Positions 1-57,952 of a stretch of DNA of 64,000 nucleotides are shown one piece after another (position 1 is the first letter of the stretch; each line of letters begins with the position of its first letter). A program made the position numbers and the translations under genes. The notes under the pieces were generated by a model, which had not been told where the DNA came from, did not search any database, and was given only the letters and a program-made list of their open reading frames with translations. The DNA is from an uncultured Gammaproteobacteria bacterium (lineage in GTDB: Bacteria; Patescibacteriota; Microgenomatia; Levybacterales; UBA12049), in contig CAZWXQ010000003.1 in assembly GCA_964637955.1 (NCBI GenBank), positions 223,154-287,153 of the forward strand. Reading direction: 5' to 3'.

Positions 1-238
1 GACGAATGGATTTAAGATGTACAAAAGAAGTTTGATTAAAAAAATCAAGCTCAAGTCCGTTGGGTGGGAATTCGGTATGGAGCTGGTAATAAAAGCAAAT
101 AGTCAGGGGTATAAAATTTCAGAAGTTCCTGTTACATCAAATAAAAGAACGCACGGAAAATCAAAGTTTAAGTTTTTTTCGTGGCTGCCTAATTACTTGC
201 GATGGCTTTTTTTAGGGATTTATTTGAGATTTAAGTAA
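1..238 (+). CDS. GT2-family glycosyltransferase, C-terminal fragment (polyprenol-phosphate sugar synthase, DPM1/ArnC-like). The 5' end lies outside the window.
   Basis: The open frame runs from position 2 with no upstream stop. The translation ...[19 protein letters not shown] matches the conserved C-terminus of DPM1-like GT2 enzymes (EVP..F.DR..G.SK) and is followed by a hydrophobic tail. Confidence 0.55.
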
Positions 239-1068
239 GAAAGGGAATTATCTATATTTTTCAAGATGGATTTATTTGAAGCGTTATGAAATTTATCTGT
301 AATTAGTACGCTTTTTTTCTTTCTGTAGGAAATTCTTTCACTTAAAAACTCATTAAATGAAATCTTTTTAATAAGCTTACTATTTAGATTCAACTGATTA
401 GCAGCTTTAATAAGGAGCTCATAATTTGATTTTGAATCTAGGGCGCCTAGATTGTAGATGCCTTGAAGATTATTATTTACTGCAAAGAGAATTGACTGTG
501 CTGCAATAGTTACATATATTGGATTATTTATTTGATCAATAATGCCAGGGAATTCTTTATTTTTAGATAAATTATCTATCATTCTTTGTATGAAATTTTC
601 CTTATTCCCATTGCCAAATAAATTAATAATTCTAAGAGAAGCAGTTTTTTTAAATGTTAGAACTGTGTATTCTCCTTTTTCTTTACTTATTCCATACACA
701 CTCTTTGCTTTGGTTTTATCAATTTCGGTGAATTCAAATTTATTTTTGTAACCATCGAAAACTGCATCAGTAGAAATATAATAAAAGGATATATTATTTT
801 TCGATGCAAACTTAGCTAGAAGTCCAGGGATTTTATAGTTAAGGTTGTTTGTAATAGTTTTGTTTTTTTGAGCAAAATCCATTGACGAGATTCCTGCACA
901 GTAAATAATTTTTTCAGGCATTAATTTGTAAATATATTCATAAATATCTTGTGTATTATTCAAGTCTATGTTTGATCTTGGGGGAGCAATCAATTTTTTG
1001 TCAATTTTTAGAATGGTTGATCCTAGAAATCCAGAACCACCAAAAAGCAATATTTTCCTAGAAGGCAT
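220..1068 (-). CDS. NAD(P)-dependent sugar-nucleotide reductase, dTDP-4-dehydrorhamnose reductase (RmlD)-like
   Basis: The N-terminus carries a Rossmann motif, [15 protein letters not shown]. An ISTDAVFDG motif matches the RmlD STDYVFDG signature. Confidence 0.6.
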
Positions 1069-1272: not shown

Positions 1273-3831
1273 TTGATAAAAAATATGAAAACCTCTTTAA
1301 TTCTAACGGTTTTTAACGAAGAAAAAAATATTCTGAATTTTTTAAATTCATTAAAAATTCAAATAAAAAAATCTGATGAAATTCTTATAGTAGATGCGTG
1401 TTCTACTGATAATACAGTTCTAGTTATAAAAGGTTTTATAGAAAAAAATAAAAAAATAAACTTAAAGATATTTTCTAAAAATGGAAATATTTCAGTCGGT
1501 AGAAATTACGCAATTAAAAATGCAAAGAATGAAATTATTCTTTGTACTGATGCGGACTGTGAATTAGATAAAAAGTGGGTTAAAAATATTTCTATACCTT
1601 TTGAAGATAAGAAAATTGATGTAGTAGCTGGTTTTTATAAACCCAAAGCAAATTCAGTATTTGAAAAATGTCTTGCAACATATACAAGTGTTATGCCGGA
1701 TAAATTGGATAAAGATAACTTTATTCCTTCGTCTAGATCAATTGCGTTTAGAAAATCTGCTTGGGAAAAAATTGGCGGATATCCGCAGTGGCTTGATAGA
1801 GGTGAAGACTTATATTTTGCAAAAGCCTTAAAAGAAAAAGGACTTAATTTCAAATTTGCTAAAGACGCATTTGTTCACTGGCCTCAGAGAAAAAATCTTC
1901 ACGAAGCGTTTATGCAATTTTATGGATATGCAAAAGGAGACGGACAAGCATTAAATATTAGAAACGGAGCTTTATTAGTTTATCTTAGGTACTTTTTAGC
2001 AAGTTATCTTATTTTTATAAGTATCTTAGAAAGGTCTATTATTGGAGTACTGTTTGTCGGGATCTTATTTATTTTTTATATACTCTGGAGCATTAAAAAA
2101 AATTATTATTATGTGAAAGAAAAGAAAGCAATATTTATTTTACCTTTACTTCAATTTGCCGCAGATTTTGCAATTCTTTCAGGTACGATTTTAGGTTTAA
2201 TTAGGAGAATTTCTTTTATAAAAATTAAAAAAGTTTTTATTGAAAACAAATTCATATTACTTGTTTTATGGATATATACTTTTTATTTACTTTTTACCAT
2301 AAACTCTGGGGCACCTGGGATGAATAATCCCTATCCTTTTAATATGGATGAATGGCATCAATTTCAAGCCGTAAGGACTACTGTAGCTTATGGTACTCCG
2401 AATATTTTTGGCTCAGCGAATGGAACAATGCTTCATTTTTTAATATCTGCAATTTATCTTGTTCCATTTACGCTAATTGGGTACATAGACCCAATTAATT
2501 TACCTGTTACTGATCTATTAATGAGGGGGAGAATCTTCGACCTTTTAAGAATAAATACCTTAATATTTGGATTATTTTCAATTCTAGCTTTGTATTTATT
2601 AGCGAAGAAATTAAATATCTCAAAAATAATTACAATATTATTTTTTGTATTTTCTCCGATTTGGATAAGCTTTAGTGGACTTTTTAAATATGATATAGCG
2701 CTTTCATTTTTTATTATTACATCTTTACTTATTTTTATTAATTTTATAAAGAATCCATCAGCAAAGAATTATTTTATTTGTGCTGCTATTGCCGCTTTAG
2801 CATTTTCTGTAAAATTTAGCGCTTTGCCATTGTTGCCAATTTTAATAATTTCATTTTTTTGTTTTTTTAAAAATCCTTTTCATAATTTAAAAATATTTTT
2901 GATAAGCTGTGCGATTTATTTAATTACAGTATTACTTTTTGGTGTTCCAGATACTGTATTTGGAAATGGAAATATAATTCTCTTTTTAAGAGAAAATTTA
3001 ATTGGATTTCCTTCTTCTGTAGGAAGTTTCAGCTTGGGAATGAATCCAAGGATTTTTTTACTTTTTAAACAATACCCAATAATTTTTGGACACAGTATGT
3101 TTTTATTATTTTTACTCTCACTTGTTGGACTTACATATTTCTTGATAAAAGCATGGTTAAAGAAAAATAACTCAAATTATAAAGACGACTTATTTATTCT
3201 ACTTTCATTTGCATTATTTTATATTAGCTTAATTCCATTAAATTTATATGCTGGGGGAAATAAAAGTTTGGTACTCCTACCGTTTATAGTTTTAATAATT
3301 GGACTTTTTTTGAAGAGATCAAAAGATTATGGATTGACTAGAAAAACTGTTCCCTTTTTAGTAATAATAGTTTTAATATTAAATATTTTTGAGACTTTTC
3401 TTTGGATAAATTTAAAAAGGGCTGAAAGTCCACAATTTATAGCTTCAGAATGGATAATAAAAAATATTCCTAAAGGAACAGAGATAGGACTTGAAAATGT
3501 GCCAATATATCAAGGGATTCCTGATATTTTAGAAAAAGAATTTTATTTCAAGCAAGATGGTTATGGAGAAGCTAATATTTATAAATACTCTATAATTGAC
3601 TCAAATTCTGAGAAATTACCTAAGGTGATAGTAATATCAAACGGTGAGATCGATAGCATAACAAATAAAAATTCAGTTAAAAAAAAGTTAATTGAAAGAT
3701 TATATAGAGAGGGTTATGTAAAAAAGTATGATTTACATGCAAAAAAACCTTATAAAATGTCTGAATTAGATTTTCATTTTTCATGGATTGGGTTTGCTCA
3801 AACTTCACTTGCTGTTTATATAAAGAAGTAG
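1273..3831 (+). CDS. Fusion protein: N-terminal GT2 (GT-A fold) domain joined to a large polytopic GT-C-like (ArnT/PMT-like) membrane domain
   Basis: It is 852 aa. The first ~230 aa carry GT2 motifs (IVDACSTDNT, CTDADCELD). The rest holds at least 12 hydrophobic segments with an extracytoplasmic-loop NMDEW acidic motif typical of GT-C enzymes. Confidence 0.65.
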   Translation: MIKNMKTSLILTVFNEEKNILNFLNSLKIQIKKSDEILIVDACSTDNTVLVIKGFIEKNKKINLKIFSKNGNISVGRNYAIKNAKNEIILCTDADCELDKKWVKNISIPFEDKKIDVVAGFYKPKANSVFEKCLATYTSVMPDKLDKDNFIPSSRSIAFRKSAWEKIGGYPQWLDRGEDLYFAKALKEKGLNFKFAKDAFVHWPQRKNLHEAFMQFYGYAKGDGQALNIRNGALLVYLRYFLASYLIFISILERSIIGVLFVGILFIFYILWSIKKNYYYVKEKKAIFILPLLQFAADFAILSGTILGLIRRISFIKIKKVFIENKFILLVLWIYTFYLLFTINSGAPGMNNPYPFNMDEWHQFQAVRTTVAYGTPNIFGSANGTMLHFLISAIYLVPFTLIGYIDPINLPVTDLLMRGRIFDLLRINTLIFGLFSILALYLLAKKLNISKIITILFFVFSPIWISFSGLFKYDIALSFFIITSLLIFINFIKNPSAKNYFICAAIAALAFSVKFSALPLLPILIISFFCFFKNPFHNLKIFLISCAIYLITVLLFGVPDTVFGNGNIILFLRENLIGFPSSVGSFSLGMNPRIFLLFKQYPIIFGHSMFLLFLLSLVGLTYFLIKAWLKKNNSNYKDDLFILLSFALFYISLIPLNLYAGGNKSLVLLPFIVLIIGLFLKRSKDYGLTRKTVPFLVIIVLILNIFETFLWINLKRAESPQFIASEWIIKNIPKGTEIGLENVPIYQGIPDILEKEFYFKQDGYGEANIYKYSIIDSNSEKLPKVIVISNGEIDSITNKNSVKKKLIERLYREGYVKKYDLHAKKPYKMSELDFHFSWIGFAQTSLAVYIKK

Positions 3832-3849
3832 CATTGTTATAATGCTTTT

Positions 3850-5067
3850 ATGGGATATAAAACACCTGCTTTAAAAGGTATCACCTGGATGGGTTTTCTT
3901 AGAGCTTCTACGAGATTAATCGCATTCGTAAGGTTGGCTGTTCTTGCAAGAATACTTTCACCTGCTCAATTCGGTGCCTTTGGTGTTGCTACGCTCGTTC
4001 TTTCATTTCTTGAGGTAATTACCGAAACTGGAATAAATGTATTTCTGATACAAAATAAAGAAAAATCTAATGATTATATTAGTTCTGCCTGGATTGTCTC
4101 GATTGTAAGAGGTAGTTTAATTGCTCTTTTGTTGGTTTTATTTGCTCCTTTAATCTCTAGTTTTTTTAATTCTCCAGAGTCATATAATATTCTACTCCTT
4201 ATAGCACCGGTTCCGTTTATTAGAGGATTTATAAACCCTTCAATAATTAATATTCAGAAAAATATAGAATTTCATAAAGAATTTTACCTACGCTCAATTT
4301 TGCTTTTAGTAGATGCAAGTGTTGCTATTATTGCAGCTTTTGTAACAAAAAGCGCCGTAAGTATGGCATATGGACTTATCGTCTCTGCGGTCATTGAAGT
4401 AGTATTATCTTTTATACTATTTAAACCATGGCCAAAGTTAACTTTCGAGAAAGATAAGATGCTCCATATTTTTAGTAGGGGATGGTCTGTTACTTTAACG
4501 GGAATTTTCCTATATTTGTCTGAAAATTTAGACAATATTACTGTTGGGAGAATACTTGGTGTAGGTTCTCTTGGAATTTATCAAAATGCCTATAAGATTT
4601 CTACTCTTACGATATCTGAAATTGCTGAAGTAGTAAATAAAGTTACATTTCCAGTTTATTCTAAATTTTCAGATGATAAGCAGAGATTAAGTAATGCGTT
4701 TAAGAAAGTCATCTCTTCGTCATCGTTAGTAGCAATAGCGCTTGGAATATTTATTTTTATTTTTGCAGATTTAATAGTTAGAATTATTCTTGGGCCGGAT
4801 TGGGCTAGCGCAGTTCCAATTGTAAAAATACTTTCTGTTTATGGAGTTCTGCGAACAATTTTTGGAAATGTACCACCATTGCTATTGTCCCTTGGAAAGC
4901 AGAAGTATGTTGCAGGAATTGTTTTTGTGAGGCTTTTTGTTTTGGCTATTGTAATAGTTCCTTTAGTAAGTAGATTTGGCATGGAAGGCGCGGCCTATGC
5001 AATGGTAATCTCAGTATTTGCAGAAATTCCTCTTATGATATTTTCAGCAAGGAGGGTTTTAAAATAA
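3850..5067 (+). CDS. MOP-superfamily polysaccharide flippase (Wzx-like)
   Basis: It is a 405 aa polytopic protein. The N-terminus RLAVLARILSPAQFGAFGVATLVLSFLEVITETGINVFLIQ matches the polysaccharide biosynthesis protein (Wzx) family signature. Confidence 0.65.
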   Translation: MGYKTPALKGITWMGFLRASTRLIAFVRLAVLARILSPAQFGAFGVATLVLSFLEVITETGINVFLIQNKEKSNDYISSAWIVSIVRGSLIALLLVLFAPLISSFFNSPESYNILLLIAPVPFIRGFINPSIINIQKNIEFHKEFYLRSILLLVDASVAIIAAFVTKSAVSMAYGLIVSAVIEVVLSFILFKPWPKLTFEKDKMLHIFSRGWSVTLTGIFLYLSENLDNITVGRILGVGSLGIYQNAYKISTLTISEIAEVVNKVTFPVYSKFSDDKQRLSNAFKKVISSSSLVAIALGIFIFIFADLIVRIILGPDWASAVPIVKILSVYGVLRTIFGNVPPLLLSLGKQKYVAGIVFVRLFVLAIVIVPLVSRFGMEGAAYAMVISVFAEIPLMIFSARRVLK

Positions 5068-5900
5068 TGAAAGGCCTCAGCCCGGAAATCTACGATACTG
5101 ATTACTATTTAAACTCAAACTTAGGATCTGAAGAATTTAAAAAATATAAAGGTAAAAAAGTTCATGAAACCATTTATAATTTTGCAAATCTTCTTGGAGA
5201 CGTTAAGAATAAAAAAATTTTAGATTTAGGATGCGGAAGGGGAGATTTGGTAATTGAACTTGCAAGGAGAGGAGCGCTAGCAACTGGCGTTGATTATTCG
5301 AAGGATGGTATAGATTTAGCAAAAGCTGCTCTTAAAATTCAGTCAAAAGAAATAAAAAGTAGAACTAATTTTTTTGTCAAGGATATTGTTAAAACAGATT
5401 TTGAAAAGAATAGTTTTGATATTGTAGTTTCCACTGATGTTTTTGAGCATTTATATAAGGAGGAGCTGGAAATTGTCGTTGAGAAGCTTTCAAAAACATT
5501 AAATCCAAATGGATTTTTATTAATTCACACAGGGACTAATAAAATTTATCTTGATTTTACTCATATCCTTTGGTGTTATTGGATGGATTTGTTTCTTTTA
5601 AAAATTTACAATTTTATATCAAGAAATAATTATCCTGGACTTCCTAAAGACCCAAGAAATGATCTGCATAAAACTCAGCATGTAAATGAACCAACTTATT
5701 TTTATCTAAAATCTTTGTTTGAAAGACATGAATTTAAAGGAGAAATTAATTCTATGGTGCCATATAAACCAAATTTAAGCTGGAAAGATAAAATTTATAA
5801 CATCATAGTTTATCTTTATCCAATATCTAATTATTTTCCGCTAAATTTAATGTTTGCAACCGAATATATTTGCTTGCAAAAGAAAGACACAAAAAAGTAA
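5067..5900 (+). CDS. Class I SAM-dependent methyltransferase
   Basis: Motif I is ILDLGCGRGDLVIELA. An acidic residue ends beta2 (GVDYS). A DVFEHL motif is present. Confidence 0.7.
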   Translation: MKGLSPEIYDTDYYLNSNLGSEEFKKYKGKKVHETIYNFANLLGDVKNKKILDLGCGRGDLVIELARRGALATGVDYSKDGIDLAKAALKIQSKEIKSRTNFFVKDIVKTDFEKNSFDIVVSTDVFEHLYKEELEIVVEKLSKTLNPNGFLLIHTGTNKIYLDFTHILWCYWMDLFLLKIYNFISRNNYPGLPKDPRNDLHKTQHVNEPTYFYLKSLFERHEFKGEINSMVPYKPNLSWKDKIYNIIVYLYPISNYFPLNLMFATEYICLQKKDTKK

Positions 5901-5935
5901 TTTTAAAATTTGGTAGAATCTTCTAGATAAAACTA

Positions 5936-7024
5936 ATGAAAATAGCTTTTTTCCATGAACTGCCATATGGAGGTGCAAGACGCGCTGTTCTTGAGTTTGG
6001 AAAAGCTATGGGAAGTGAGCACCAAGTTGATATTTTTTATATCGACGAAAAAAAAGAAGAAAAAGTTGAAAAAATATTTAATAAATCTAAATTTTATAAA
6101 TTTACACCTCGAAAATGGAGTGGAGGAGATTGGAAATCAAAGTTACATAAAGATACTATAGAGCTTGTTAAGTTATACAAAATCCACAAAGAAATTGCGA
6201 AAAATATTGATCAAAAAGATTACGACTTCGTTTTTGTACATGGGTCTAAATTTACCCAAGCACCATTTATTTTAAGATTACTAAAAACCAAGTCAATTTA
6301 TTATTGCCAAGAGCCATTGAGAATGGTTTATGAAGATCTTTTCGATATTCCAGTTGATTTATCAATTGGTAAAAAAATATATGAAAGAATTAATAGAAAC
6401 AACAGGAGATTAATTGATAAATATTGTGCAAAAAAAGCAAACATTTTGCTTGCAAACTCAAGATTTACAAAAATGAATATAAAGTCTTGGCTTGGTCTGG
6501 ATTCTGTAGTGGCATATATGGGAATAGACCCTAAAAGATTTTATCCTGAAAAAGTTAAGAAAGAATTTGATTTGCTTTTTGTGGGGTCCAGAGAAGAAAT
6601 TGATGGATATTCTTTTTTTGTAAGATCGCTTGATAACATGAAAAAAAAGCCGAGCGTGAGGTGGTTGCTTCGTGAAGATGAGTGGATTGATGACGATAGC
6701 AAGTTAAGAGATATATATTCGAAATCAAAAATTTTGGTTTGTACGGCATATAAAGAGCCTTTTGGATTACTTCCAATTGAAGCTCAGGCTTGTGGTCTTG
6801 CTGTAGTAGCGGTTAAAGAAGGTGGTTATTTGGATACCGTTGAAAATGATAAGACCGGGATATTATTTAAAAGGAATGAAAAAGTCCTAGCAGAGACACT
6901 TAGTGAAATTTTAAAAGACACAAAAAAAGTTGATGAATTTTCAAAAAATGCAATTGAAAATATTAAAAATAATTGGACCTGGGATATAAATTCTAAAAAA
7001 ATTATTGAGATTGCAAATTCATAA
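5936..7024 (+). CDS. GT4-family (GT-B fold) glycosyltransferase
   Basis: The C-terminal EX7E motif is EPFGLLPIEAQACGLAVVA. Length is 362 aa. Confidence 0.75.
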   Translation: MKIAFFHELPYGGARRAVLEFGKAMGSEHQVDIFYIDEKKEEKVEKIFNKSKFYKFTPRKWSGGDWKSKLHKDTIELVKLYKIHKEIAKNIDQKDYDFVFVHGSKFTQAPFILRLLKTKSIYYCQEPLRMVYEDLFDIPVDLSIGKKIYERINRNNRRLIDKYCAKKANILLANSRFTKMNIKSWLGLDSVVAYMGIDPKRFYPEKVKKEFDLLFVGSREEIDGYSFFVRSLDNMKKKPSVRWLLREDEWIDDDSKLRDIYSKSKILVCTAYKEPFGLLPIEAQACGLAVVAVKEGGYLDTVENDKTGILFKRNEKVLAETLSEILKDTKKVDEFSKNAIENIKNNWTWDINSKKIIEIANS

Positions 7025-7052
7025 AAAAATGATGCTATAATACCTCAATCTT

Positions 7053-8087
7053 ATGTCGAAAAACATTCTTATTACAGGTGGAGCAGGATTTATTGGGACC
7101 AATACTGCGAAATACTATTTAAACAGGAATGATAACGTTACGATTTTGGACAATTTCTCCAGGTATGGTTCTCTAGAAAACATTAAATATTTAAAAAGTT
7201 TAAAAAATAAAAATTTAAAAATTATTAAACATGACGTTCGAAAAGATGATAAAAAATTATCAGACACAGTAAAGTCAGCTGACATTATATTTCATCTTGC
7301 AGCACAAGTTGCTGTAACAACCTCTGTTGAAAATCCTCTTGAAGACTCTCAAATAAATGTAAATGGGACTCTGAATGTTTTAGAAGCAGCGAGAAAGTCT
7401 AAACGAAATCCCATTTTTATTTACAGCTCTACAAATAAAGTTTATGGAAATTTAGGAAATCAAAAAATTGAAAAACAGAAAACGAGATATGTTTTGAAAG
7501 ACAATTCCTTCGGGATTTCAGAATCTACTCCTTTGGATTTTTATTCGCCATATGGTTGCAGCAAGGGCGCAGCGGATCAATACGTTCACGATTATAATCG
7601 AATTTATGGGCTTCGAAGTATTGTTTTTAGACAATCTTGCATTTATGGTCCTCATCAATTTGGCATAGAAGATCAGGGATGGATCGCCTGGTTTTTAATT
7701 GCAATAATGAAAAATAAAAAAATTACTATTTATGGAGATGGCAAACAGGTTAGAGATTTACTTTTCGTAGATGATTTAGTAATTGCTTATGACCAAGCCA
7801 TAAAAAACATTAGTAAAACGGAAGGAAATGTATACAACATTGGGGGTGGGCCAAAGAATACAATTTCTGTTTGGGCTGAGCTTGAGCCGATTTTAAGAAA
7901 ATTATTTAATAAAAAAATAAATGCAGGTATAGCAGATGAAAGACCAGGAGACCAAAAAATATTTGTTTCCGATATTCGAAAAGCTAAAAAAGATTTTAAT
8001 TGGACACCTAAGAATAATGTAGAAACAGGTATTGAGAAATTATATTTCTGGCTTAGAGAAAATGAAAAAATAATTAATAAGTATTAA
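7053..8087 (+). CDS. NAD-dependent nucleotide-sugar epimerase/dehydratase (extended SDR family)
   Basis: TGGAGFIGTN is the Rossmann motif. YSPYGCSKGAADQY carries the YxxxK catalytic dyad. Length is 344 aa. Confidence 0.8.
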   Translation: MSKNILITGGAGFIGTNTAKYYLNRNDNVTILDNFSRYGSLENIKYLKSLKNKNLKIIKHDVRKDDKKLSDTVKSADIIFHLAAQVAVTTSVENPLEDSQINVNGTLNVLEAARKSKRNPIFIYSSTNKVYGNLGNQKIEKQKTRYVLKDNSFGISESTPLDFYSPYGCSKGAADQYVHDYNRIYGLRSIVFRQSCIYGPHQFGIEDQGWIAWFLIAIMKNKKITIYGDGKQVRDLLFVDDLVIAYDQAIKNISKTEGNVYNIGGGPKNTISVWAELEPILRKLFNKKINAGIADERPGDQKIFVSDIRKAKKDFNWTPKNNVETGIEKLYFWLRENEKIINKY

Positions 8088-8254
8088 ACCCGTTGATTAA
8101 ATTGTAATTGCAATAAATTTTAATATAAAAAATATTGACCCCCATAGAGAAAGATTTAAAGGCATTAATAATCTGCCTGTTTATGATATTAAGAATAAGA
8201 AAGTGATAAAGAAAAAGGAAATATGCGAATAATAAAAAATACATTTTCGTACCA

Positions 8255-10459
8255 ATGAATAAAAATATAATAGTCTCAATTATAATAGTAAATTATAAAG
8301 TAAGGGATGAACTATTTGAGTGCATTGATTCTATTCTTAAAACAAAACAAAATATAGAGCTGGAGATAATAGTAGTTGATAATTCGGAAAAGGATGAAGT
8401 TAAATCCGATTTAAAAAAGAAATTTCCAAAAGTTAAATATATTAAAAGTAAATCAAATCTTGGGTTTGGAGCAGGAAATAACTTAGGAGCAGAATCAGCC
8501 AAAAGTGAGTATTTATTTTTTTTAAATCCTGACACTAAAATTATAAAAGGAAAAATATCATCACTCGTAAAATTTATAAAAAATAACAAAAAAGTTGGAG
8601 CTGTGGCGCCACAGTTACTGAACGATAAAAATGAAGTTTATGATGAGCAGGGGGCTCGGGAGTTAACTCCGAAAAGAGCAGTAACTATATTGTCATTTAT
8701 AAACAGACTATTTCCAAAAAATAGATTCTGGAAAGAATATTGGAAAATACCTTGGGATAAAAAAAGAGTGAAAAATGTAGATGTAATTCCTGGGACTGCA
8801 TTTATGATTAAAAAAGAATTATTTGAAAAAATAGGTGGGTTTGACGAGAAGTATTTTTTGTATTTTGAAGAATTTGATTTATGTAAAAATTTAATTAAAT
8901 CAGGATATAAAAACTACATACTTCCAGATTTAAAATTGGCACATAAATGGGGAGCAAGTACTAAGAAAAATGAATCCTCTAAAAAATATTTTATTCAGAG
9001 TAGATTTTATTATTTCAGAAAAAATTATGGTTTAATAAAAAGTTTAATTGTAGAAAACCTTTTAAGACTTAATAAAGAAAGCGTAATAATTTTAGGAATA
9101 ATAGTTCTTGGTTTAGGTTTAAGAATTTATAATCTTAGTTACGCGATGCAATTTCTGGGTGATACTGCATGGTTTTTCATTGCTGCAAGAGATATTCTCG
9201 AAAATGGTCAATTGCCACTCGTAGGTATAACTTCAAGTCATGTTTGGCTGCATCAGGGGCCATATTGGAGCTATATATTAGCAATTATTTTAAAAGTCTT
9301 TGGATTTAATCCTTTGAATGCTGGATATTTTACTATTATTTTAGATTTATTAACTTTATTTTCACTATATTTGTTTTGTAAAACATTTTTTAACCATAAA
9401 ATCGCAATGCTTAGTGCACTTCTGTATGCAATTTCACCTTTTATTATAATTTCTGCGCAAATACCTTATCACACGAACCCAATTCCACTTTTGGTGATTC
9501 TTCTATTAGCTTCAATTTTAAAATGGGTCAGGGGAGAAAGATATTATTTTCCGATTTCTATTTTTTTGCTAGCGGTGCTTTATAATTTTCAAATCTCTTC
9601 AGTGCCACTTTTCATAAGCTTTATGGTTATTTGTGCATTTGGATTTATAAAACGTAAAAAATGGTTTATGAAAATATTGAACATAAGAATATTTTTAATA
9701 TCTTTACTAGCTTTTACCGTCCCAATGATTCCTATGCTTTTATTTGATATAAAAAATGGTTTTCCACAGACGCTAAAAGTAATAATTTGGATTTTTTATA
9801 AAATTGCTGTATTTTTCGGATACCCTCCTGTAAATCCTGCATTTGCAGACGAACCAAGAAGAATATTTTTCGAATTTGTATTACTGCATTTAGGGAGAAT
9901 ATATTTTGTAATGAATAATTATATTGGTTTGATTTTGTTCATAATATTTATTTCTATATTTATATTTGGAATTATAAAAAGTAAATATAAAGATCTCTCA
10001 CTTAATGTTGTTTTTATTTTTTTTATTATTCCAGCAATAGCATTTTTAGGAATGAATTCAAGATCTCAAGCATATCTGCCTATGTTTTATCCCACAATGA
10101 TTATTATTGCTTCTTATTCCATAACAAAAATATTAAACAAAAATAAATTTATAGGTGGCTTGATTGTGCTCACAATCTTATTTGTTAATGTATTTGGAAT
10201 TATTAATTATCCGAAAAGTTCAGTTTCCTTAAGCTTGAGAACAGAAGCCGTAAAAAAGATGATTAATGAAGCAAATGGTAGTGCATATAATATGGTTGGA
10301 GAAGGCCCCTCAAGTGAGTTTGCAAGCTTTATTTATCCCTATGAATACCTAGCTTGGTATTTGGGAAATCCATCTTCAAATACAGATGAAAAAATAAAGT
10401 TTTATATTACGGATAGAGCTGATACTATAGTAATTAGAAAACAGATTAACATAAAATGA
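8255..10459 (+). CDS. Fusion protein: GT2 (GT-A) domain joined to a polytopic GT-C-like membrane domain
   Basis: The N-terminus VSIIIVNYK...IIVVDNSEKDE...FFLNPDTKI is a GT2 rhamnosyl/glycosyltransferase-type domain. The C-terminal ~450 aa is multi-TM with a GDTAWFFIAARD loop motif. Confidence 0.65.
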   Translation: MNKNIIVSIIIVNYKVRDELFECIDSILKTKQNIELEIIVVDNSEKDEVKSDLKKKFPKVKYIKSKSNLGFGAGNNLGAESAKSEYLFFLNPDTKIIKGKISSLVKFIKNNKKVGAVAPQLLNDKNEVYDEQGARELTPKRAVTILSFINRLFPKNRFWKEYWKIPWDKKRVKNVDVIPGTAFMIKKELFEKIGGFDEKYFLYFEEFDLCKNLIKSGYKNYILPDLKLAHKWGASTKKNESSKKYFIQSRFYYFRKNYGLIKSLIVENLLRLNKESVIILGIIVLGLGLRIYNLSYAMQFLGDTAWFFIAARDILENGQLPLVGITSSHVWLHQGPYWSYILAIILKVFGFNPLNAGYFTIILDLLTLFSLYLFCKTFFNHKIAMLSALLYAISPFIIISAQIPYHTNPIPLLVILLLASILKWVRGERYYFPISIFLLAVLYNFQISSVPLFISFMVICAFGFIKRKKWFMKILNIRIFLISLLAFTVPMIPMLLFDIKNGFPQTLKVIIWIFYKIAVFFGYPPVNPAFADEPRRIFFEFVLLHLGRIYFVMNNYIGLILFIIFISIFIFGIIKSKYKDLSLNVVFIFFIIPAIAFLGMNSRSQAYLPMFYPTMIIIASYSITKILNKNKFIGGLIVLTILFVNVFGIINYPKSSVSLSLRTEAVKKMINEANGSAYNMVGEGPSSEFASFIYPYEYLAWYLGNPSSNTDEKIKFYITDRADTIVIRKQINIK

Positions 10460-11214
10460 TAACAGCAATTGTGCTTACAAAAGACGAAGAGAAAAATATT
10501 GTAGATTGCATTGATGGTTTAGGATTTTGCTCAGAAATTATCATCATCGATGATTACTCGATTGATAAGACATTTGAAATAATTGAAAATTTGTCTTTAA
10601 AAAATAAGAAATTAAAAGTCTTTAAAAGACAACTTGATAATGATTTTTCAGAGCAAAGAAGATTTGGGATTGGAAAGAGTAGTAATGATTGGATTTTTTT
10701 CGTTGATGCAGATGAAAGGATAACTCCAGAACTTGCTACGGAAATAAAAGAAAATTTAACAGTAGATAATAGGTATGGAGGATATCTAATTCCTAGACAC
10801 GATTTTATGTGGGGAAAAAGTCTAGATCATGGGGAGACAGGGAATATAAAGCTATTAAGACTTTTTAACAAAAATAATGGAAAGCTTGAAGGGAAAGTTC
10901 ATGAAATATGGGTTACAAAAAAAGATGTTGGGAGATTAATAAATCCTATTTTGCATTATCCACATCCTACAGTCAGTGAATTTTTAAGAGAAATTAATTT
11001 TTATACAGATCTTCGGGCAAAAGAGCTGTACGATAAGAAAGTTAAAGTAAACGCATTTTCTATAATTCTATATCCCTGTGCTAAATTTATAAGAAATTTT
11101 ATTTTTAAGAGAGGATTTTTAGATGGAGTTGCTGGATTAGTCCATGCAATTTTAATGAGCTTTCACTCCTTTCTTGTTCGTGGAAAGCTTTGGTTTCTTT
11201 GGCAAGATAAATAG
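10456..11214 (+). CDS. GT2-family glycosyltransferase
   Basis: AIVLTKDEEKNIVDCIDGL...EIIIIDDYSIDKT matches GT2 motifs. A 4-nt ATGA overlap with the upstream gene suggests translational coupling. Confidence 0.7.
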   Translation: MITAIVLTKDEEKNIVDCIDGLGFCSEIIIIDDYSIDKTFEIIENLSLKNKKLKVFKRQLDNDFSEQRRFGIGKSSNDWIFFVDADERITPELATEIKENLTVDNRYGGYLIPRHDFMWGKSLDHGETGNIKLLRLFNKNNGKLEGKVHEIWVTKKDVGRLINPILHYPHPTVSEFLREINFYTDLRAKELYDKKVKVNAFSIILYPCAKFIRNFIFKRGFLDGVAGLVHAILMSFHSFLVRGKLWFLWQDK

Positions 11215-12216
11215 ACTTTTATATTTATCAAAAAAAATAGATATTGCTAAACAAACTGCAGGGAGAACTGGGAGCATATATCTTGAAAAATTTTCGATTA
11301 GAGTAAAAGGTGAAAGAGAAAAAACAAAAATTAATGAAAATAACATCCAATAAAAACAAAATTTAATTAATCTGTCTTTTTTTCTAAATTTATAAAGGAA
11401 AAATAAAGCAAAGAAATTTAAAATTAAGTAAATCGAACCTGACAGGAAAATGCGGTATTGTCCCCAATCTAAAGTTCTATATAGGTCATGAAATATTTGA
11501 ATAAAACCTATTCTTACAACTCCATAATTCTGGTCAAGATTTTTAAATTGGATAAGTAGGTCATCTTTCCCAAAAATTAAAAAATTATAAACAATAAGAA
11601 GTGAAGAAGTTAGTGCAAATCCAATCAGGACTCTACTAATTTCTTTATATTTTTTTTCAAAAAATAAAATTATAAATGTAGCCAGTAAAAAACATCCCGA
11701 GATTATCCTTACGTTAAATGCAATTCCTATGATGAGTCCTGAAGTAAAATAATTTTTCTTTATAAAAAAATAAAGAGAGGAAAGAAGTAAAAAGGTTGTT
11801 AATGGTTCGCTTGATGCTTTGGAAGTTTGCATAAGCCATACAGGAGGAAAAAATGCAAACAAGAAATTTATAAAAACATTTTTGAAAATTTTCCACATTA
11901 AATAAAATGAGATCGCAAAAATAACTAGATTTAAAATTATGCCAATTGCTATAATTTGATTAATTAGGTAAGTGAAAGGCAGAATTATTAACAAGTATCC
12001 TGGGAAAAGTCGTTGGTCATAGGCACCGAAATTTGGATTATTTATAAATCCATTTTTTAAAGAGTTAATATAATATACATATCCTTCTTGTTCAAATGAA
12101 AAATTTGGGTTTTCTCTGTTAATTAAGATTAAAATTAATCGAATGCCTATCGCTAGAAGCAAGATGACAATTAGTGTTTTCTGAGTGTTTAATTCAGATT
12201 TTTTAATAATATCCAT
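11152..12216 (-). CDS. Polytopic membrane protein, putative GT-C-like glycosyltransferase or polymerase
   Basis: The 354 aa translation is dominated by hydrophobic helices. It lies within the glycan island. Confidence 0.45.
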   Translation of the reverse strand: MDIIKKSELNTQKTLIVILLLAIGIRLILILINRENPNFSFEQEGYVYYINSLKNGFINNPNFGAYDQRLFPGYLLIILPFTYLINQIIAIGIILNLVIFAISFYLMWKIFKNVFINFLFAFFPPVWLMQTSKASSEPLTTFLLLSSLYFFIKKNYFTSGLIIGIAFNVRIISGCFLLATFIILFFEKKYKEISRVLIGFALTSSLLIVYNFLIFGKDDLLIQFKNLDQNYGVVRIGFIQIFHDLYRTLDWGQYRIFLSGSIYLILNFFALFFLYKFRKKDRLIKFCFYWMLFSLIFVFSLSPFTLIENFSRYMLPVLPAVCLAISIFFDKYKSLFILPKKPKLSTNKKGVKAH

Positions 12217-12341: not shown

Positions 12342-13919
12342 ATGTTTGCAATAGCAATTTTAATTGGTATTTACTCTTATATAATTTTTGCTCTTGGGAT
12401 AGTGGGATTTTTGTCTAAGATTCCAGTTTTGATTTCTACTATAATTTTTCTTTTTGGCGCTGCATTATATTTTAAAAAGCATAGGGAAGATCTTCCAAGA
12501 TTTCAAATTAAAAACCGAAAATTTAAACAACTATTTATTCTATTTTGTGTCTTCGCAGTCATAAATCTAGTCGGAGTATTAGGGCCTGAAATTTCTTTTG
12601 ATGCTTTGTGGTATCACCTGACCATTCCCAAAATCTTTATCGATGCACATAAAATATTTTTTATTGAAGGAAACATTTTTTATTATTCACTAATGCCAAA
12701 ACTTACGGAAATGCTTTATATTCCAGCATTAATGTTTGGTAATGAAAACCTTCCAAAGTTTATTCAATGGTCTTTTGGTATTCTAACAAGCATCGTTGTT
12801 TACAAGATTTCAAGAAAATATTTTGATGAAAAAGTTTCATTTTTTGCTGTGCTTATATTTTATGGAAGTTTGGTAGTGGCTTGGGAATCGACTGTAGCAT
12901 ATATAGATTTATCTCGAACTTTTTTTGAGGTGATGGGACTTCTTGGATTTATAAATTGGTATGAAACAAAAGATAGGAAATGGTTGGTGGAATCAGCAGT
13001 GATGGTAGGATTTGCAATGTCTACAAAAAATTTGGCGATTGGGAGTCTAGTAATTTATTTTGTTTTATTTTTATGTGCAGATAAAAATTATAAACAGATG
13101 ATAAAAAATGCGATATTATTTGTGCTCGTAGCAATATTAACAGCATTGCCTTGGTATCTCTATGCGTATATGTTTTCAGGAAATCCTATCTATCCATTTT
13201 TTGATAAGAGAATAGTTTATAATACTTCATCAGCAATTAATTTAATTACGTTTCCAAAAGAAGCGTTTGATTTTTTCTTAAAACTTGCAGATCCTATTTC
13301 TCCTCTATTTTTAATATTCTTACCGTTAATAATAATTTATTTTAGAAGATTTAATAAACCATTAAAATTAATCGCAATTTACTGCTTGGTAGCAATAATA
13401 ATTTGGTATATAACTCCACGTACTGGTGGAGGGAGATTTATTCTTCCTTATCTTCCTGCTTTTTCGGTGGTCGCAATCGCAGCAATAAGTGAGTTTAAAG
13501 ATAAAAGAATTAAAAAGTTTTCATATTTTTTAATTATTTTGGTATTTGTAATTAATTTGACTTATAGAGCAGTTGCAAATTCCAGATATATACCAGTCAT
13601 AATTGGAAAAGAGTCAAAAGATGAATTTTTAACCAAAAATTTAAATTTTAATTTCAGTGAATTTTATGACACAGATGGATTTTTTAAAGAGAATATAAAA
13701 AAAAATGATAGAGTACTTCTTTTCGGATTCCACAATCTTTATTACGCAGACTTTCCATTTGTAGACTCTTCATATATTAAAAAAGGTGAAGAGTTTAACT
13801 TCGTCGCGACCCAAAACTCTGAACTTCCAGAAAGATTTAAAAATTGGGATTTAATTTATGTTAATGATCTTACAAAAGTTAAAGTATATACTTTAGGAAG
13901 AATAAAATGGCACTACTAA
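12342..13919 (+). CDS. Polytopic membrane protein, putative GT-C-like glycosyltransferase
   Basis: A strong Shine-Dalgarno sequence GAGGAGG lies 6 nt upstream of the ATG. The 525 aa protein has about 12 TM segments and an acidic first-loop motif (ISFDALWYH). Confidence 0.45.
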   Translation: MFAIAILIGIYSYIIFALGIVGFLSKIPVLISTIIFLFGAALYFKKHREDLPRFQIKNRKFKQLFILFCVFAVINLVGVLGPEISFDALWYHLTIPKIFIDAHKIFFIEGNIFYYSLMPKLTEMLYIPALMFGNENLPKFIQWSFGILTSIVVYKISRKYFDEKVSFFAVLIFYGSLVVAWESTVAYIDLSRTFFEVMGLLGFINWYETKDRKWLVESAVMVGFAMSTKNLAIGSLVIYFVLFLCADKNYKQMIKNAILFVLVAILTALPWYLYAYMFSGNPIYPFFDKRIVYNTSSAINLITFPKEAFDFFLKLADPISPLFLIFLPLIIIYFRRFNKPLKLIAIYCLVAIIIWYITPRTGGGRFILPYLPAFSVVAIAAISEFKDKRIKKFSYFLIILVFVINLTYRAVANSRYIPVIIGKESKDEFLTKNLNFNFSEFYDTDGFFKENIKKNDRVLLFGFHNLYYADFPFVDSSYIKKGEEFNFVATQNSELPERFKNWDLIYVNDLTKVKVYTLGRIKWHY

Positions 13920-15103
13920 AATATTTGTTTCCAATACTTTTCTTGGCATTTTCTTTCGGAGAACTAGCGCGAATAAGACTTTTTGCATCAGTTAATTCAG
14001 GAATATTCGATCTAATATTAATTTCTATTCTAGGGATTTGGTTTTTATTTTCCAAAAAATCAAAATACACCCTTTTAAAACCACTTCTACTTTTTTCAGG
14101 TCTAGCACTTTTTTCTTTAGTTATTAATTTTGGAAAATTTCATGTTGATCAGATTTTTATTTCGTCACTTTATCTTGTCAGATTTATTTTATACTCGGGA
14201 ATTTATTTTGTCTTAGTTGATCTAGATAAAAAAAATATAAATCGCATTTCTTTTTATATGCTTTTTTCAGGTCTAGTAATAATAATTTTAGGTTTTCTTC
14301 AATATTTCTTTTACCCAAGCTTAAAAAATTTATACTATCTGGGATGGGATGATCATATGTACAGGTTGTTTTCCACTTTTCTTGACCCAAATTTTACCGG
14401 ATCATTTTTTGTTTTGTTTCTGGTGTTTGTATATATTCTCAAAGAAAAGTTATTTCCAAAAAAATACTTGTGGGCTTCATATCTTGTAATAGCTTTAAAT
14501 TTGATTGCGATAGTTCTGACATTTTCTAGAGGTGCTCTTTTAATGCTTCTAGTTTGCGTAGTTACATATTCCTTATTATCTAAAAACTGGAAAATTACTG
14601 GAGGAATCATTGTCGGATTTATTTTGGTATTCTTTATTCTTTCTCCTAAGTTTTATGTTGAGAATATGAATTTACTTCGCTTCGCTTCCACTGAAGCAAG
14701 AATTGAGTCAGCAAAAAGGGGATTATCTATTTGGCAGGAAAATCCGATGGGAGTAGGATTCAATACTTACAGATTCGCTCGCAAAGCTTATGAGCCCACA
14801 GATTGGACTAATTTTGGTCCAAGTCATGCTGGGAGTGGTATTGATAATAGTTTAATTTTGGTTCTTGCTACAGCGGGTTTTATGGGCTTTGGCGCGTATG
14901 TGTACCTGCTTTATAGGATATTTAAATTGGGTTATTCGAATATTCATGAGAAAGTTAAAGAAAATAAGTTTGCTTTAGTGCTTGTTATTTCGCTCGTTGG
15001 ACTTACGGTAAACAGTTTATTTATCAATAGCCTTTTTTATAGCTTTTTATTATTTTGGATTTTTGTTCTTGCTGGACTTACTGAGAATAGTTCACGTGAA
15101 TGA
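13907..15103 (+). CDS. O-antigen ligase / Wzy_C-domain glycan polymerase family protein
   Basis: It is multi-TM with the LTFSRGALLMLL motif typical of the Wzy_C domain. Length is 398 aa. Confidence 0.6.
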   Translation: MALLKYLFPILFLAFSFGELARIRLFASVNSGIFDLILISILGIWFLFSKKSKYTLLKPLLLFSGLALFSLVINFGKFHVDQIFISSLYLVRFILYSGIYFVLVDLDKKNINRISFYMLFSGLVIIILGFLQYFFYPSLKNLYYLGWDDHMYRLFSTFLDPNFTGSFFVLFLVFVYILKEKLFPKKYLWASYLVIALNLIAIVLTFSRGALLMLLVCVVTYSLLSKNWKITGGIIVGFILVFFILSPKFYVENMNLLRFASTEARIESAKRGLSIWQENPMGVGFNTYRFARKAYEPTDWTNFGPSHAGSGIDNSLILVLATAGFMGFGAYVYLLYRIFKLGYSNIHEKVKENKFALVLVISLVGLTVNSLFINSLFYSFLLFWIFVLAGLTENSSRE

Positions 15104-15890
15104 TTTTTTCAGTTGAATTTCCAGCTCCATCAGTAGAAACTACTTTGATTTCATTATCCCCACCTTTAAGAGTTAAGAAGTAAGACCATTCATTTTGGTT
15201 ATTAAGAATTGCTTGAAAATCATTGACGATTACGCTACTGTCGGGATCACTTTTTCCTTTTACTTCAATTGGATTTGCTCCTGAAATTTGTGCGCCATCA
15301 GAAGGAGAATCGATACTAAGCTCAGGTCCCTTTATTTTATAAGAAACTGTTTGAGAAGGTGAGAATTCGCTTTCAGAAGCGCCTTTAAGAGCTTTTGCTT
15401 TTATGATATTTTCGCCGTCAGTAAGTTCAATATTTGTTTCGAAATCACCATTTTCATCAGCTTTTACTTCTGCTTCTTTGCTACCATTTAAATAAACATA
15501 AACGGTGAGTCCTGAAATGGATGATCCTCCGATTCTCAAAAGCTTTTCTTTGGTTGCTTTGGGTAGTCCATCTAAATCTGGAGCTGAAACAAATTCTTTT
15601 TCAGTTTCCATAGTTTCTTTTTTATCAGGTGAGCTAGTAATTTTTCCAAATAAAAAGCTGGCATCACTAATAAGTGGTAATCCAAATTTGAATAGAAGTG
15701 CGAGAATAATAATTATTCCCAAGACACTAAAAATGAAAGTGTTTCTGGATTTTCTTTGAAAACTTTTATTTAGTCTTGATCTTTTTGGCATAGGTTCTTG
15801 ATTTGTTTTTGGAACATTACTGGAAGAAATATTTTCTTCTCCATCTATTCTAATATTAGCACTTTCGATAGGTGTTTGATTATCCGTCAT
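15078..15890 (-). CDS. Membrane-anchored surface protein with bacterial Ig-like repeats
   Basis: It has a basic N-terminal tail, one TM helix (FIFSVLGIIIILALLF), then two beta-rich repeats ending in DG(A)GN-type motifs. Confidence 0.45.
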   Translation of the reverse strand: MTDNQTPIESANIRIDGEENISSSNVPKTNQEPMPKRSRLNKSFQRKSRNTFIFSVLGIIIILALLFKFGLPLISDASFLFGKITSSPDKKETMETEKEFVSAPDLDGLPKATKEKLLRIGGSSISGLTVYVYLNGSKEAEVKADENGDFETNIELTDGENIIKAKALKGASESEFSPSQTVSYKIKGPELSIDSPSDGAQISGANPIEVKGKSDPDSSVIVNDFQAILNNQNEWSYFLTLKGGDNEIKVVSTDGAGNSTEKIIHVNYSQ

Positions 15891-19146: not shown

Positions 19147-19816
19147 AAATAAGTTTAATCCCAGTAATGGTATGAAGCTTACTCTTGCCCCATTTTCTGG
19201 CGTTTTCGCGAGTAGGAACTTCCATAAGTCTATATTTTTTCTTCAGGCATTTGACCACAAATTCCTGTTCTATATCAAAACCGTCTGCTTTAAGGTCTAG
19301 TTTTAGAGCCACAGATTTTTTGACAGCGCGAAAGCTAAAAAGCACATCGCTATAACCAGTGTTAAACCTTTTGTTTACCAGATAGGCAAGGAAATCTGCG
19401 CCGCCTGATCTGGCGATTCCCCAGAAGTCCATGTTTAGATCATAGCTTCCGCCAGTGCGCCTCGAACCAATCACGGCATCTGCTTTATCTTGAAAAAGGG
19501 GATTTAATAAAGAAGGAATTTCTTTTTCATTATGTGATCCATCAGCGTCAAAGAACAGAAGATATGGATTCTTGGCTTTTTTAATTCCAATGCGCACTGC
19601 GTCTCCGCGACCAACACCATTATCTAGAATATAGTGAGCTCCAAACTTCTTTGTAATTTCCTTCGTAGAGTCCGTAGAATGCCCATCAACGACGATTATT
19701 TCGCTTCCGTATGGCTTTACACTTTTCAGTATTCGAAGCAGCCCTTCGCCTTCATTACGTGCTGGGATAATTACTGTAACTTTTGATTTATTAAAACGAG
19801 TCGCTTTTGTTGCCAT
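19118..19816 (-). CDS. GT2 polyprenol-monophosphate sugar synthase (DPM1/GtrB-like)
   Basis: VTVIIPARNEGEGL...IIVVDGHSTDSTKEI matches this family. Length is 232 aa. Confidence 0.75.
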   Translation of the reverse strand: MATKATRFNKSKVTVIIPARNEGEGLLRILKSVKPYGSEIIVVDGHSTDSTKEITKKFGAHYILDNGVGRGDAVRIGIKKAKNPYLLFFDADGSHNEKEIPSLLNPLFQDKADAVIGSRRTGGSYDLNMDFWGIARSGGADFLAYLVNKRFNTGYSDVLFSFRAVKKSVALKLDLKADGFDIEQEFVVKCLKKKYRLMEVPTRENARKWGKSKLHTITGIKLIFNLLAELYL

Positions 19817-54673: not shown

Positions 54674-54776
54674 TTATATAAATTCATACTTTAATAAATT
54701 CAGTATGACCCTTAGTTTTTCGCACATTCGATATTTTCAGTTCAACCCTGAGCAAAGTCGAAGTGGGTCGAGCGGG

Positions 54777-55721: not shown

Positions 55722-55723
55722 TT

Positions 55724-57951: not shown

Positions 57952-57952
57952 G

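Follow-up and report, generated by a model that had tools for sequence, protein, structure and literature searches.

Near the start of a 64,000-nucleotide stretch of DNA (contig CAZWXQ010000003.1 of assembly GCA_964637955.1, positions 223,154 to 287,153 of the forward strand; the whole stretch analysed is called the window here) lie two genes whose products, P1 and P2, each join a glycosyltransferase family 2 (GT2) domain of the GT-A fold to a membrane module of the GT-C type. P1 (1285 to 3831, plus strand, 848 aa) consists of a GT2 module with its own membrane helices joined to a PMT_2-type GT-C. P2 (8255 to 10459, plus strand, 734 aa) consists of a GT-A domain resembling WbbL and the polypeptide GalNAc-transferases (GalNAc-T), joined to another PMT_2-type GT-C. 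Below we describe the two proteins, the evidence that the fusions are genuine, their relatives and gene surroundings, and the pathway in which they may act.

Domain organization and conserved residues

The longest open reading frame (ORF) of P1 opens at TTG 1273, and the original prediction accordingly gave 852 aa. That ORF exists, but the database protein that is 100% identical to P1 (P0001) has 848 aa and the sequence atgaaaacc is found at 1285, 12 nt further in, so that ATG 1285 is the real start. The GT-A catalytic domain (aa 1-225, 1285 to 1959), also recognized by Foldseek, matches Glycos_transf_2 (PF00535) over aa 8-163 (E 3.6e-24, 86 bits, cut-off 23.3) and passes Glyco_transf_21 (PF13506) marginally, with 24.0 bits against a gathering cut-off of 21.7. 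In the family alignment D37, D42, D89 and E174-D175 are invariant, the last pair being the putative ED catalytic-base motif; aa 89-91 read DAD in the window protein and DAG in the family consensus. C-terminal to this domain lie an interface helix and then three long ones. The 95-aa helical membrane segment that they form (aa 226-320, 1960 to 2244) is delimited by the AlphaFold2 (AF2) helices, by the distribution of lysine and arginine (K/R) and by genomes in which the protein is split. In the AF2 model it comprises helices a (227-248), b (252-277) and c (282-308) and a short amphipathic helix, and its invariant residues are R226, R235, Y265, K272, N273, Y276, L286, Q290, D294 and G300.

The GT-C part of P1 spans 528 aa (321-848), including a C-terminal soluble domain of 130 aa. 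Its transmembrane core (aa 321-715, 2245 to 3429) begins with the first transmembrane helix (TM1) at aa 322-337 and matches PMT_2 (PF13231) over aa 425-553 with 30.6 bits (cut-off 26.1); many P1 homologues also have PF02366 (PMT) in their precomputed Pfam annotation. In the first outer loop M354-D355-E356-W357-H358 (nt 2344-2358) are invariant and begin the first helix of the loop. The alpha/beta soluble domain (aa 716-848, 3430 to 3828), recognized from AF2 secondary structure, probably lies outside the cytoplasm and has a conserved GxENxPxYQ stretch, one of the two patterns used in the locus scan described below. Invariant residues of P1 are thus found in all three parts, GT-A, membrane segment and GT-C.

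P2 is 100% identical to database protein P0121. Its GT-A domain (aa 1-270, 8255 to 9064) matches PF00535 over aa 8-193 (E 2.5e-21, 76.8 bits, cut-off 23.3), PF10111 and PF13641, and is likewise found by Foldseek. N91-P92-D93, which takes the place of the DXD motif, P179-G180, E205-E206 and H230 are invariant, and D208, which completes an EExD motif at aa 205-208, is nearly so. The GT2 module has no membrane helices of its own; amphipathic helices at aa 241-270 lead directly into TM1 of the GT-C (aa 274-291). The GT-C spans 464 aa. Its core (aa 271-658, 9065 to 10228), with about 11 transmembrane helices, is defined by PF13231 (aa 334-488, 37.1 bits, cut-off 26.1), the AF2 model and K/R counts. 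An invariant D303 (nt 9161-9163) opens the first helix of the first outer loop, and the same loop holds an invariant SxxWxHQGxxWxY block (S328, W331, H333-Q334-G335, W338, Y340); H406, Y443-N444, D498 and Q505-T506 are further invariants of the GT-C. The C-terminal soluble domain (aa 659-734, 10229 to 10456) is probably extracytoplasmic. With 22 invariant residues in the GT-A half of P2 and 24 in its GT-C half, and with the spread seen in P1, both halves of each fusion are under comparable constraint in the alignments.

A simple hydropathy scan was too noisy for topology, and AF2 helices together with family-wide K/R counts were used instead. Under this model P2 would have 11 transmembrane helices with the GT-A domain inside and the C-terminus outside, an arrangement that obeys the positive-inside rule. 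In P1 the loops on both sides of helix c are rich in K and R, which suggests that helix c is interfacial and that only helices a and b are true crossings; the GT-C loop would then be outside, as in P2.

Integrity of the fusions

The original prediction described two intact ORFs, P2 with the limits given above, each with an N-terminal GT2 domain and a C-terminal GT-C-like part of about 450-600 aa that meet near positions 1950 and 9050. All of this stands: GT2 and PMT_2 domains score above the curated Pfam cut-offs in both proteins, the GT-C parts fall within that range, and the junctions are at about nt 1960 and 9065. More than 120 homologues each of P1 and P2 align over 95-100% of the query at 40-65% identity and equal length, and most of them carry both Pfam domains. 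P0001 is encoded identically in two independent Logan assemblies (SRR14271332 and SRR14271336). Among GTDB species representatives 79 loci were detected; after removal of duplicates of loci already in the set and addition of the window, the fused form of P1 was present in 57 of 78 species-level loci. AF2 models, built on 50-sequence alignments, are confident (mean pLDDT 90.4 and pTM 0.87 for P1; 90.6 and 0.84 for P2) and show no disordered or low-confidence linker at either junction.

P1 and P2 are thus confirmed as genuine in-frame fusions of a cytoplasmic GT2 to a GT-C-type membrane module. That two adjacent genes were merged by an assembly or frameshift error is practically out of the question: an A8 run at nt 2095, the only homopolymer near a junction, does fall inside the P1 junction region, but sequence and frame are conserved on either side of it, and the homologues, the second assembly, the many fused genomes and the high pLDDT across both junctions argue against a stop or frameshift separating two genes.

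The GT2 halves

Both proteins have the marks of GT2 enzymes: a PF00535 match above cut-off, metal- or nucleotide-binding and acidic base motifs, and the GT-A fold, their AF2 models matching GT-A structures in Foldseek at E 1e-9 to 1e-10. For inverting GT-A enzymes, PMC12595478 describes what the conserved base Asp does.

The original prediction took these halves to be synthases of lipid-linked sugars, a role that the searches do not bear out. The polyprenol-phosphate sugar synthases DPMS, GtrB and ArnC (5mlz, 5ekp and 9bhc) are GT2 enzymes of the same GT-A fold, and they share with P1 the presence of membrane helices after the catalytic domain. However, the similarity of P1 and P2 to them amounts to 17-43 bits and is confined to the N-terminal nucleotide-binding half. 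In a profile search of the PDB, P1 matched GtrB (about positions 2-93) and ArnC (about 2-132) at 21 bits; for P2 the scores were 42.6 bits with DPMS (positions 2-116) and 17 bits with GtrB. None of the DPMS, GtrB or ArnC structures is among the best 50 Foldseek matches of either model, and neither protein matches the family models for ArnC (PRK10714), PpgS, AglJ or Dol-P hexose transferase at E <= 0.01. Among NCBIfam models, P1 has a 31.5-bit N-terminal match to PgfS, whose cut-off is 500.

Two stand-alone GT2s of the same cluster served as positive controls. The first, a 235-aa protein whose 3' end is the ORF at 2 to 238 (plus strand), matches DPMS 5mlz over aa 5-227 (E 9.8e-22, 80.9 bits), as well as GtrB (5e-12), ArnC (1e-6) and the NCBIfam models for PgfS, AglJ, PpgS and ArnC-like proteins. 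The second (19118 to 19816, minus strand) matches AglJ (TIGR04182) at E 1.2e-40 and PpgS at E 1e-19. The models for ArnC, PpgS, AglJ and Dol-P hexose transferase were all listed for these stand-alone GT2s, and the notion that the fused GT2s are of the DPM1/GtrB/ArnC type was rejected on profile and fold searches set against these controls. The presence of the two DPM1-type GT2s also indicates that the cluster already has dedicated donor synthases.

What the fused GT2s resemble instead differs between the two proteins. The best 50 Foldseek matches of P1 include TarS, TarP, RmlT, WrtF and GalNAc-T2, the best TM-score being that to PcManGT (6yv7; TMq 0.26 over 326 columns). This membrane GT2, whose fold is a minimal version of that of cellulose synthase, is reportedly a dolichyl phosphate (Dol-P)-dependent mannosyltransferase. 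Like PcManGT, P1 has a GT-A domain, an interface helix and some three long helices. However, identity is only about 17%, and the match begins at residue 43 of the 6yv7 chain; PcManGT has some 40 N-terminal residues, which we take to be a transmembrane helix, that P1 lacks. The pass against PF13506 links P1 to the Glyco_transf_21 enzymes (ceramide glucosyltransferase and HpnI-like lipid glycosyltransferases). Neither PcManGT nor the GT21 enzymes are fused to a GT-C, unlike P1. The best 50 matches of P2 are almost all of the GalNAc-T family, with WrtF and 6p61; GalNAc-T2, T3 and T9 and WrtF rank best. P2 shares the NPD, PG, EExD and H motifs with WbbL-type rhamnosyltransferases (TIGR01556), GT27 polypeptide GalNAc-transferases and WrtF, which differ from P2 in being soluble or peripheral proteins that have no fused GT-C. 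Its score against TIGR01556 is 56.9 bits where the cut-off is 200.55, which makes P2 a relative of the WbbL-type enzymes and not a member. By these comparisons the GT2 of P1 appears to be a membrane-embedded GT21-like module and that of P2 a WbbL/GalNAc-T-like domain. A donor-synthase role is unlikely for P2. For P1 its own C-terminal helices and its best TM-score to PcManGT speak for such a role, which we nevertheless consider rather improbable.

The GT-C halves

Membership of both GT-C halves in the PMT_2 group follows from the PF13231 scores and from the conserved acidic residue in the first predicted outer loop. With the PMT_2, GT39 and GT83 enzymes (ArnT, protein O-mannosyltransferase) P1 and P2 share a multi-helix core with a predicted inside N-terminus, an acidic residue opening the first outer-loop helix, and a C-terminal soluble domain; unlike those enzymes they carry an extra N-terminal GT-A domain. 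The DE of the MDEWH motif recalls the loop-1 DE motif of protein O-mannosyltransferases, and GT-C catalysis typically involves invariant acidic and histidine residues in the first outer loop.

Links to solved structures are more tenuous. The best 50 Foldseek matches of the whole models were to GT-A structures only. When GT-C-only alignments were searched against the PDB, the P2 type had a weak match to the archaeal oligosaccharyltransferase AglB (3waj, E 0.005) and the P1 type only a chance-level match (E 0.15) to an unrelated protein. The match of the P1 profile to yeast Pmt1 reached only E 0.32, and in the PDB profile search neither fusion had a significant sequence match to ArnT or bacterial PMT structures. 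The GT-C halves of P1 and P2 are also distant from each other (hhalign E only 1e-6). A recent duplication of one fusion as the origin of P1 and P2 was rejected on this remote relationship and on the different GT2 subtypes.

Split, shuffled and further fused relatives

The named homologues belong to Levybacteria, Roizmanbacteria and the 'Patescibacteria group'. About half of the matching GTDB records (L006-L084) are third-party-annotation metagenome-assembled genomes (MAGs) titled 'uncultured Gammaproteobacteria', with a few titled 'Pseudomonadales'; these records carry the Levybacteria-type cluster, and the titles look like placeholders or wrong taxonomy.

The P1-type GT-C is found alone at 20 related loci (475-627 aa, most about 500-560), with MDEWH intact. 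At half of these (10 of 20) the P1-type GT2 with its membrane segment is a separate gene of 289-388 aa within 10 kb and, where inspected, in the same cluster. These separate proteins score about 350 with the P1_GT2 profile and about 85 with P1_link, and two such modules score 27.9 and 36.1 bits against PF13506. Since the segment corresponding to aa 226-320 stays with the GT2 gene in the split genomes, it is best seen as the membrane part of the GT2 module itself. A crude neighbour-joining tree in which split and fused P1 forms are interspersed suggests repeated fusion or fission.

P2 varies similarly. The syntenic position holds a GT-C only (L009, L010), a GT2 only (L035) or both as adjacent genes (L028). 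In the last case a gene at L028:14930-17197 encodes 755 aa, with a P2-type GT2 at aa 5-270 and, C-terminal to it, some 480 aa without a match to the P2 GT-C profile, and it overlaps by 19 nt the following gene (L028:17179-18591) for a stand-alone P2-type GT-C of 470 aa. In a library of 1.84 billion proteins the P2-type GT-C was found in 178 representative clusters at E <= 1e-30; among the best 150 of these, 55 representatives are fused and about 71 stand alone. The stand-alone P2-type GT-Cs keep the equivalents of D303, H333-Q334 and D498. This retention of key residues, as of MDEWH in the P1 type, suggests that the GT-C half is a working enzyme in its own right.

The two families also appear to have exchanged parts. 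An 832-aa protein (L083:9095-11593) of a MAG titled Paceibacterota joins a P2-type, WbbL-like GT2 to a P1-type GT-C with MDEWH, indicating domain shuffling between the P1 and P2 fusion families. A third GT-C subfamily is found fused to a true DPMS/ArnC-type GT2 (750-860 aa), fused to a GT4 (about 885 aa) or alone (about 512 aa). An example of the first form is the 764-aa protein L064:9947-12241, whose GT2 matches 5mlz over aa 3-229 (E 1.6e-19, 72.7 bits); others are in L019, L023, L060, L066 and L005 (12621-14885). They often lie directly downstream of the P1 orthologue but are not present in the window. Judged by these matches, the architecture imagined in the original prediction does exist in the lineage, as this third fusion family. 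The GT4-PMT_2 fusions (P0410, P0420, P0433, P0434, P0446, P0447, P0449, P0452 and P0473) have a GT-B domain (PF00534, PF13439, PF13692), and their carriers are Levybacteria or Patescibacteria. GT-C modules of this lineage thus join both GT-A and GT-B partners; in Levybacteria-like members of the candidate phyla radiation (CPR) they are joined to at least four kinds of Leloir glycosyltransferase, namely GT21-like, WbbL-like and DPM1-type GT2s and GT4.

The gene cluster and its surroundings

The first 20 kb of the window have about 28% GC, compared with 33-39% further on, and the best reading of this region is a polyprenol-dependent cell-surface glycan cluster in a Levybacteria-like (Patescibacteria/CPR) genome. 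It begins with the truncated gene of the first DPM1-type control, which matches the 235-aa protein of L001:8247-8954 (phmmer 165 bits) and is probably the polyprenol-phosphate sugar synthase of the cluster. Next is an RmlD-like nucleoside diphosphate (NDP)-sugar reductase (220 to 1068, minus strand; TIGR01214, E 1.5e-35, 122.7 bits, below the cut-off of 224), a gene kept upstream of P1 in L001, L003 and L004; sugar-nucleotide modification genes lie upstream of the window. P1 is followed by a Wzx-type flippase of the MOP family for lipid-linked glycans (3850 to 5067, plus strand; PF13440, E 1.6e-71). Of 49 fused P1 loci, 48 have a Wzx homologue within 10 kb, and the gene is directly downstream of P1 in the window, in L003 and L004 and at many other loci. 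Between it and P2 are, all on the plus strand, an S-adenosylmethionine-dependent methyltransferase (5067 to 5900; PF13649, PF08241), a GT4 of the GT-B fold (5936 to 7024; PF00534, E 9e-22) that is syntenic in most related loci, and an NDP-sugar epimerase/dehydratase (7053 to 8087; PF16363, PF01370). A P2-type fusion lies within 10 kb of P1 at 24 of 40 loci.

P2 appears to be translationally coupled to a 252-aa GT2 (10456 to 11214, plus strand; PF00535), whose start overlaps the P2 stop codon (ATGA). Among the related loci inspected for it, this GT2 is directly downstream of the P2-position gene in L004/L038, L009, L010, L028, L035, L068, L071 and L076. Its 3' end overlaps by 63 nt a convergent gene (11152 to 12216, minus strand) for a 354-aa polytopic GT-C-like protein with about 10 hydrophobic segments and a weak match to the LA_3751/3752 family (NF047440, E 3e-9, below cut-off). 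A stand-alone PMT_2 GT-C of 525 aa (12342 to 13919, plus strand; PF13231 41.9 bits, ArnT-like E 2.8e-7) and a Wzy_C membrane protein resembling O-antigen ligases and polymerases (13907 to 15103, plus strand; PF04932 47.9 bits) follow. At the edge of the cluster a possible surface protein of 270 aa (15078-15890, minus strand) combines an N-terminal membrane helix with a Glucodextran_B/Big_13 Ig-like domain (E 1e-17).

Further on is a 401-aa polytopic protein (17941 to 19146, plus strand) with about 10-12 hydrophobic segments and no Pfam or NCBIfam match. Its gene is convergent with that of the AglJ/PpgS-like control, the second candidate polyprenol-phosphate sugar synthase, with a 29-nt overlap, and it could be an unrecognized GT-C-like partner of this adjacent unfused GT2. 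The cluster thus holds a synthase-type GT2, a flippase and GT-Cs together, with four to five GT-C-like modules.

Five ORFs of 171-488 aa (16682-17920, 19882-20397, 20489-21535, 21619-22227 and 22320-23786) without Pfam or NCBIfam matches lie between the glycan cluster and an ATP synthase operon, and GC climbs there from about 0.28 to about 0.37-0.39. Another group of sugar-modification genes (51995-59891, minus strand) encodes, among others, two NDP-sugar epimerase/dehydratases, a DegT-type aminotransferase and a transketolase-like protein. Beside dnaE (30656-33883) and gatB, this reduced, CPR-type genome encodes a protein with a GGDEF diguanylate cyclase domain (33858-34748, minus strand).

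Proposed pathway and alternatives

We propose that P1 and P2 are two independent, conserved Rosetta-stone fusions that each link an inner-face and an outer-face step of one polyprenol-dependent glycan pathway, a reading that we hold to be on balance probable. Each polypeptide would tie a cytoplasmic, inverting GT-A that uses nucleotide sugars to a GT-C with an outward catalytic loop. The GT2 halves would glycosylate a membrane-anchored intermediate, either a polyprenol-linked glycan or a lipid anchor, at the inner face, that of P1 acting as a membrane-embedded GT21-like module and that of P2 as a soluble WbbL/GalNAc-T-like domain kept at the membrane. The Wzx-type flippase of the cluster would then carry the intermediate across, and the GT-C halves would act outside on the flipped product or on a polymer, with polyprenol-phosphate sugars supplied mainly by the separate DPM1-type GT2s. 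What is gained from fusing would be co-localization and a 1:1 stoichiometry of the two steps and not a physical conduit. Domain identities, conservation of the fusions, candidate catalytic residues, split and fused variants and the cluster context are observed, and from them the topology, substrates, order of steps and benefit of fusing are inferred. The split forms of P1 and P2 in the same clusters lend Rosetta-stone support to a shared pathway.

Several observations weigh against this proposal. The sequence links of the GT-C halves to solved GT-Cs are marginal. The GT2 of P1 has C-terminal helices of its own, as GtrB and ArnC do, and its best TM-score is to PcManGT. In P1 three long helices precede TM1 of the GT-C, and the K/R pattern is the one line of evidence suggesting that helix c stays out of the membrane. 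Finally, no phosphoglycosyl-transferase initiating enzyme was found in the scanned part of the window.

The strongest rival follows the original prediction in part: the fused GT2 would make a polyprenol-phosphate monosaccharide that the GT-C of the same chain uses after flipping, in the manner of GtrB with GtrC or GacI with GacL. Such producer-consumer logic is well established for three- and four-component systems, as set out in PMC10821137. The Wzx-type gene directly downstream of P1 in the window and several related loci would supply the flipping step, and related genomes do contain a true DPMS/ArnC-type GT2-PMT_2 fusion, such as the one in L064. The resemblance of P1 to PcManGT favours it as well, and the invariant R226, R235, Q290 and D294 of the P1 helices could bind a lipid phosphate. 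However, the matches to DPMS, GtrB and ArnC are weak and cover the nucleotide-binding half only, where the stand-alone GT2s of the cluster match over the full domain; the GT-A of P2 is of the WbbL/GalNAc-T-like kind and comes without membrane helices; and the GT4-GT-C fusions of the lineage cannot work in this way. The fusions of GT-Cs to DPM1-type GT2 and to GT4 argue for a general logic of an inner-face Leloir glycosyltransferase with an outer-face GT-C over a synthase-consumer pair, and we regard the latter as doubtful for P1 and P2. Direct channelling of the sugar, also part of the original prediction, is doubtful too, because the active sites would face opposite sides of the membrane and a flipping step would be needed.

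A bolder reading, to which we give little credence, is a trans-bilayer assembly line: a single protein would make a lipid-linked intermediate, translocate it and consume it, the GT-C-like domain perhaps acting as the translocator. CPR bacteria are commonly inferred to be unable to make their own lipids, and in such organisms an assembly line, if true, would spare scarce polyprenol carriers.

Slightly more remote still is the view that the GT-C-like half translocates an inner-face lipid-linked sugar, besides or instead of acting as a transferase, as Agl23 might. According to PMC11182771, purified Agl23 moved a lipid-linked oligosaccharide across the membrane of proteoliposomes in vitro, and aa 425-529 of P1 match TIGR03663 ('flippase activity-associated protein Agl23') at E 2e-5. 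That match, however, reaches 23.7 bits against a cut-off of 126.25, and P2 has none. A Wzx-type gene within 10 kb of nearly all fused loci argues against a second translocator, and the invariant acidic and histidine residues of the first outer loop fit GT-C catalysis instead.

It is very improbable that the GT-C half is catalytically inactive and serves as a membrane anchor or a lipid-carrier-binding platform for the GT-A domain. In its favour, the GT-A of P2 lacks membrane helices, a WbbL-type enzyme working on a lipid-linked acceptor would need some membrane association, and the GT-C halves are only marginally similar to solved, active GT-Cs. Against it, the GT-C part holds half of the invariants of each family, mostly in its predicted outer loops (MDEWH in P1; D303, the SxxWxHQGxxWxY block and D498 in P2), and stand-alone GT-C relatives, in which there is no GT-A needing an anchor, retain these residues.

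Relation to known systems and significance

Three- and four-component systems such as GtrA/GtrB/GtrC, GacI-GacJ/GacK/GacL, WpsA-WpsB/WpsG/WpsJ and CsbB/GtcA/YfhO are the closest known parallels. As in those systems, the cluster encodes a cytoplasmic GT2, a flippase (Wzx-type in Gac and Wps) and an outward GT-C together; it also has further GT-Cs, a GT4 and the Wzy_C protein. Its layout resembles the lactococcal polysaccharide pellicle (PSP) and streptococcal group A carbohydrate (GAC) polyprenol-monophosphate pathways as described in PMC10821137. In those systems the components are separate proteins, and GacJ-GacI is the only natural fusion reported in that paper. Unlike in those systems, the GT2s of P1 and P2 are covalently joined to the GT-C and are not of the GacI/GtrB/DPM1 type.

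One precedent for joining a cytoplasmic GT2 to a membrane enzyme with an opposite-facing active site in a single chain is Ppm1 of Mycobacterium tuberculosis, in which an Lnt-like membrane domain is fused to a polyprenol-P-mannose synthase. It differs in its acyltransferase-like partner, in its reversed domain order and in having a true DPM1-type GT2. Full-text literature searches, most of them directed at this kind of protein, found no description of a natural GT-A/GT-C fusion. The architecture, called uncommon in the original prediction, is therefore uncommon in the characterized literature but not in the Levybacteria-like lineage, where by the sequence comparisons it is common and conserved. 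The entries for these proteins in public databases already list both domains. Since all the parts are of known families and there is no hint of new chemistry, the practical importance is moderate.

The proteins carry a caution for annotation, in that a GT2 fused to a GT-C need not be a polyprenol-phosphate sugar synthase. P1 and P2 are, moreover, compact and well-predicted targets of 730-850 aa for studying the coupling of cytoplasmic and extracytoplasmic steps. In polyprenol-dependent glycosylation the GT-A and the GT-C enzyme are as a rule distinct proteins, whose pairing is guessed from gene neighbourhood. The natural fusions described here, together with their split sister versions, provide direct genetic evidence for the pairing of inner-face and outer-face enzymes in a CPR lineage.

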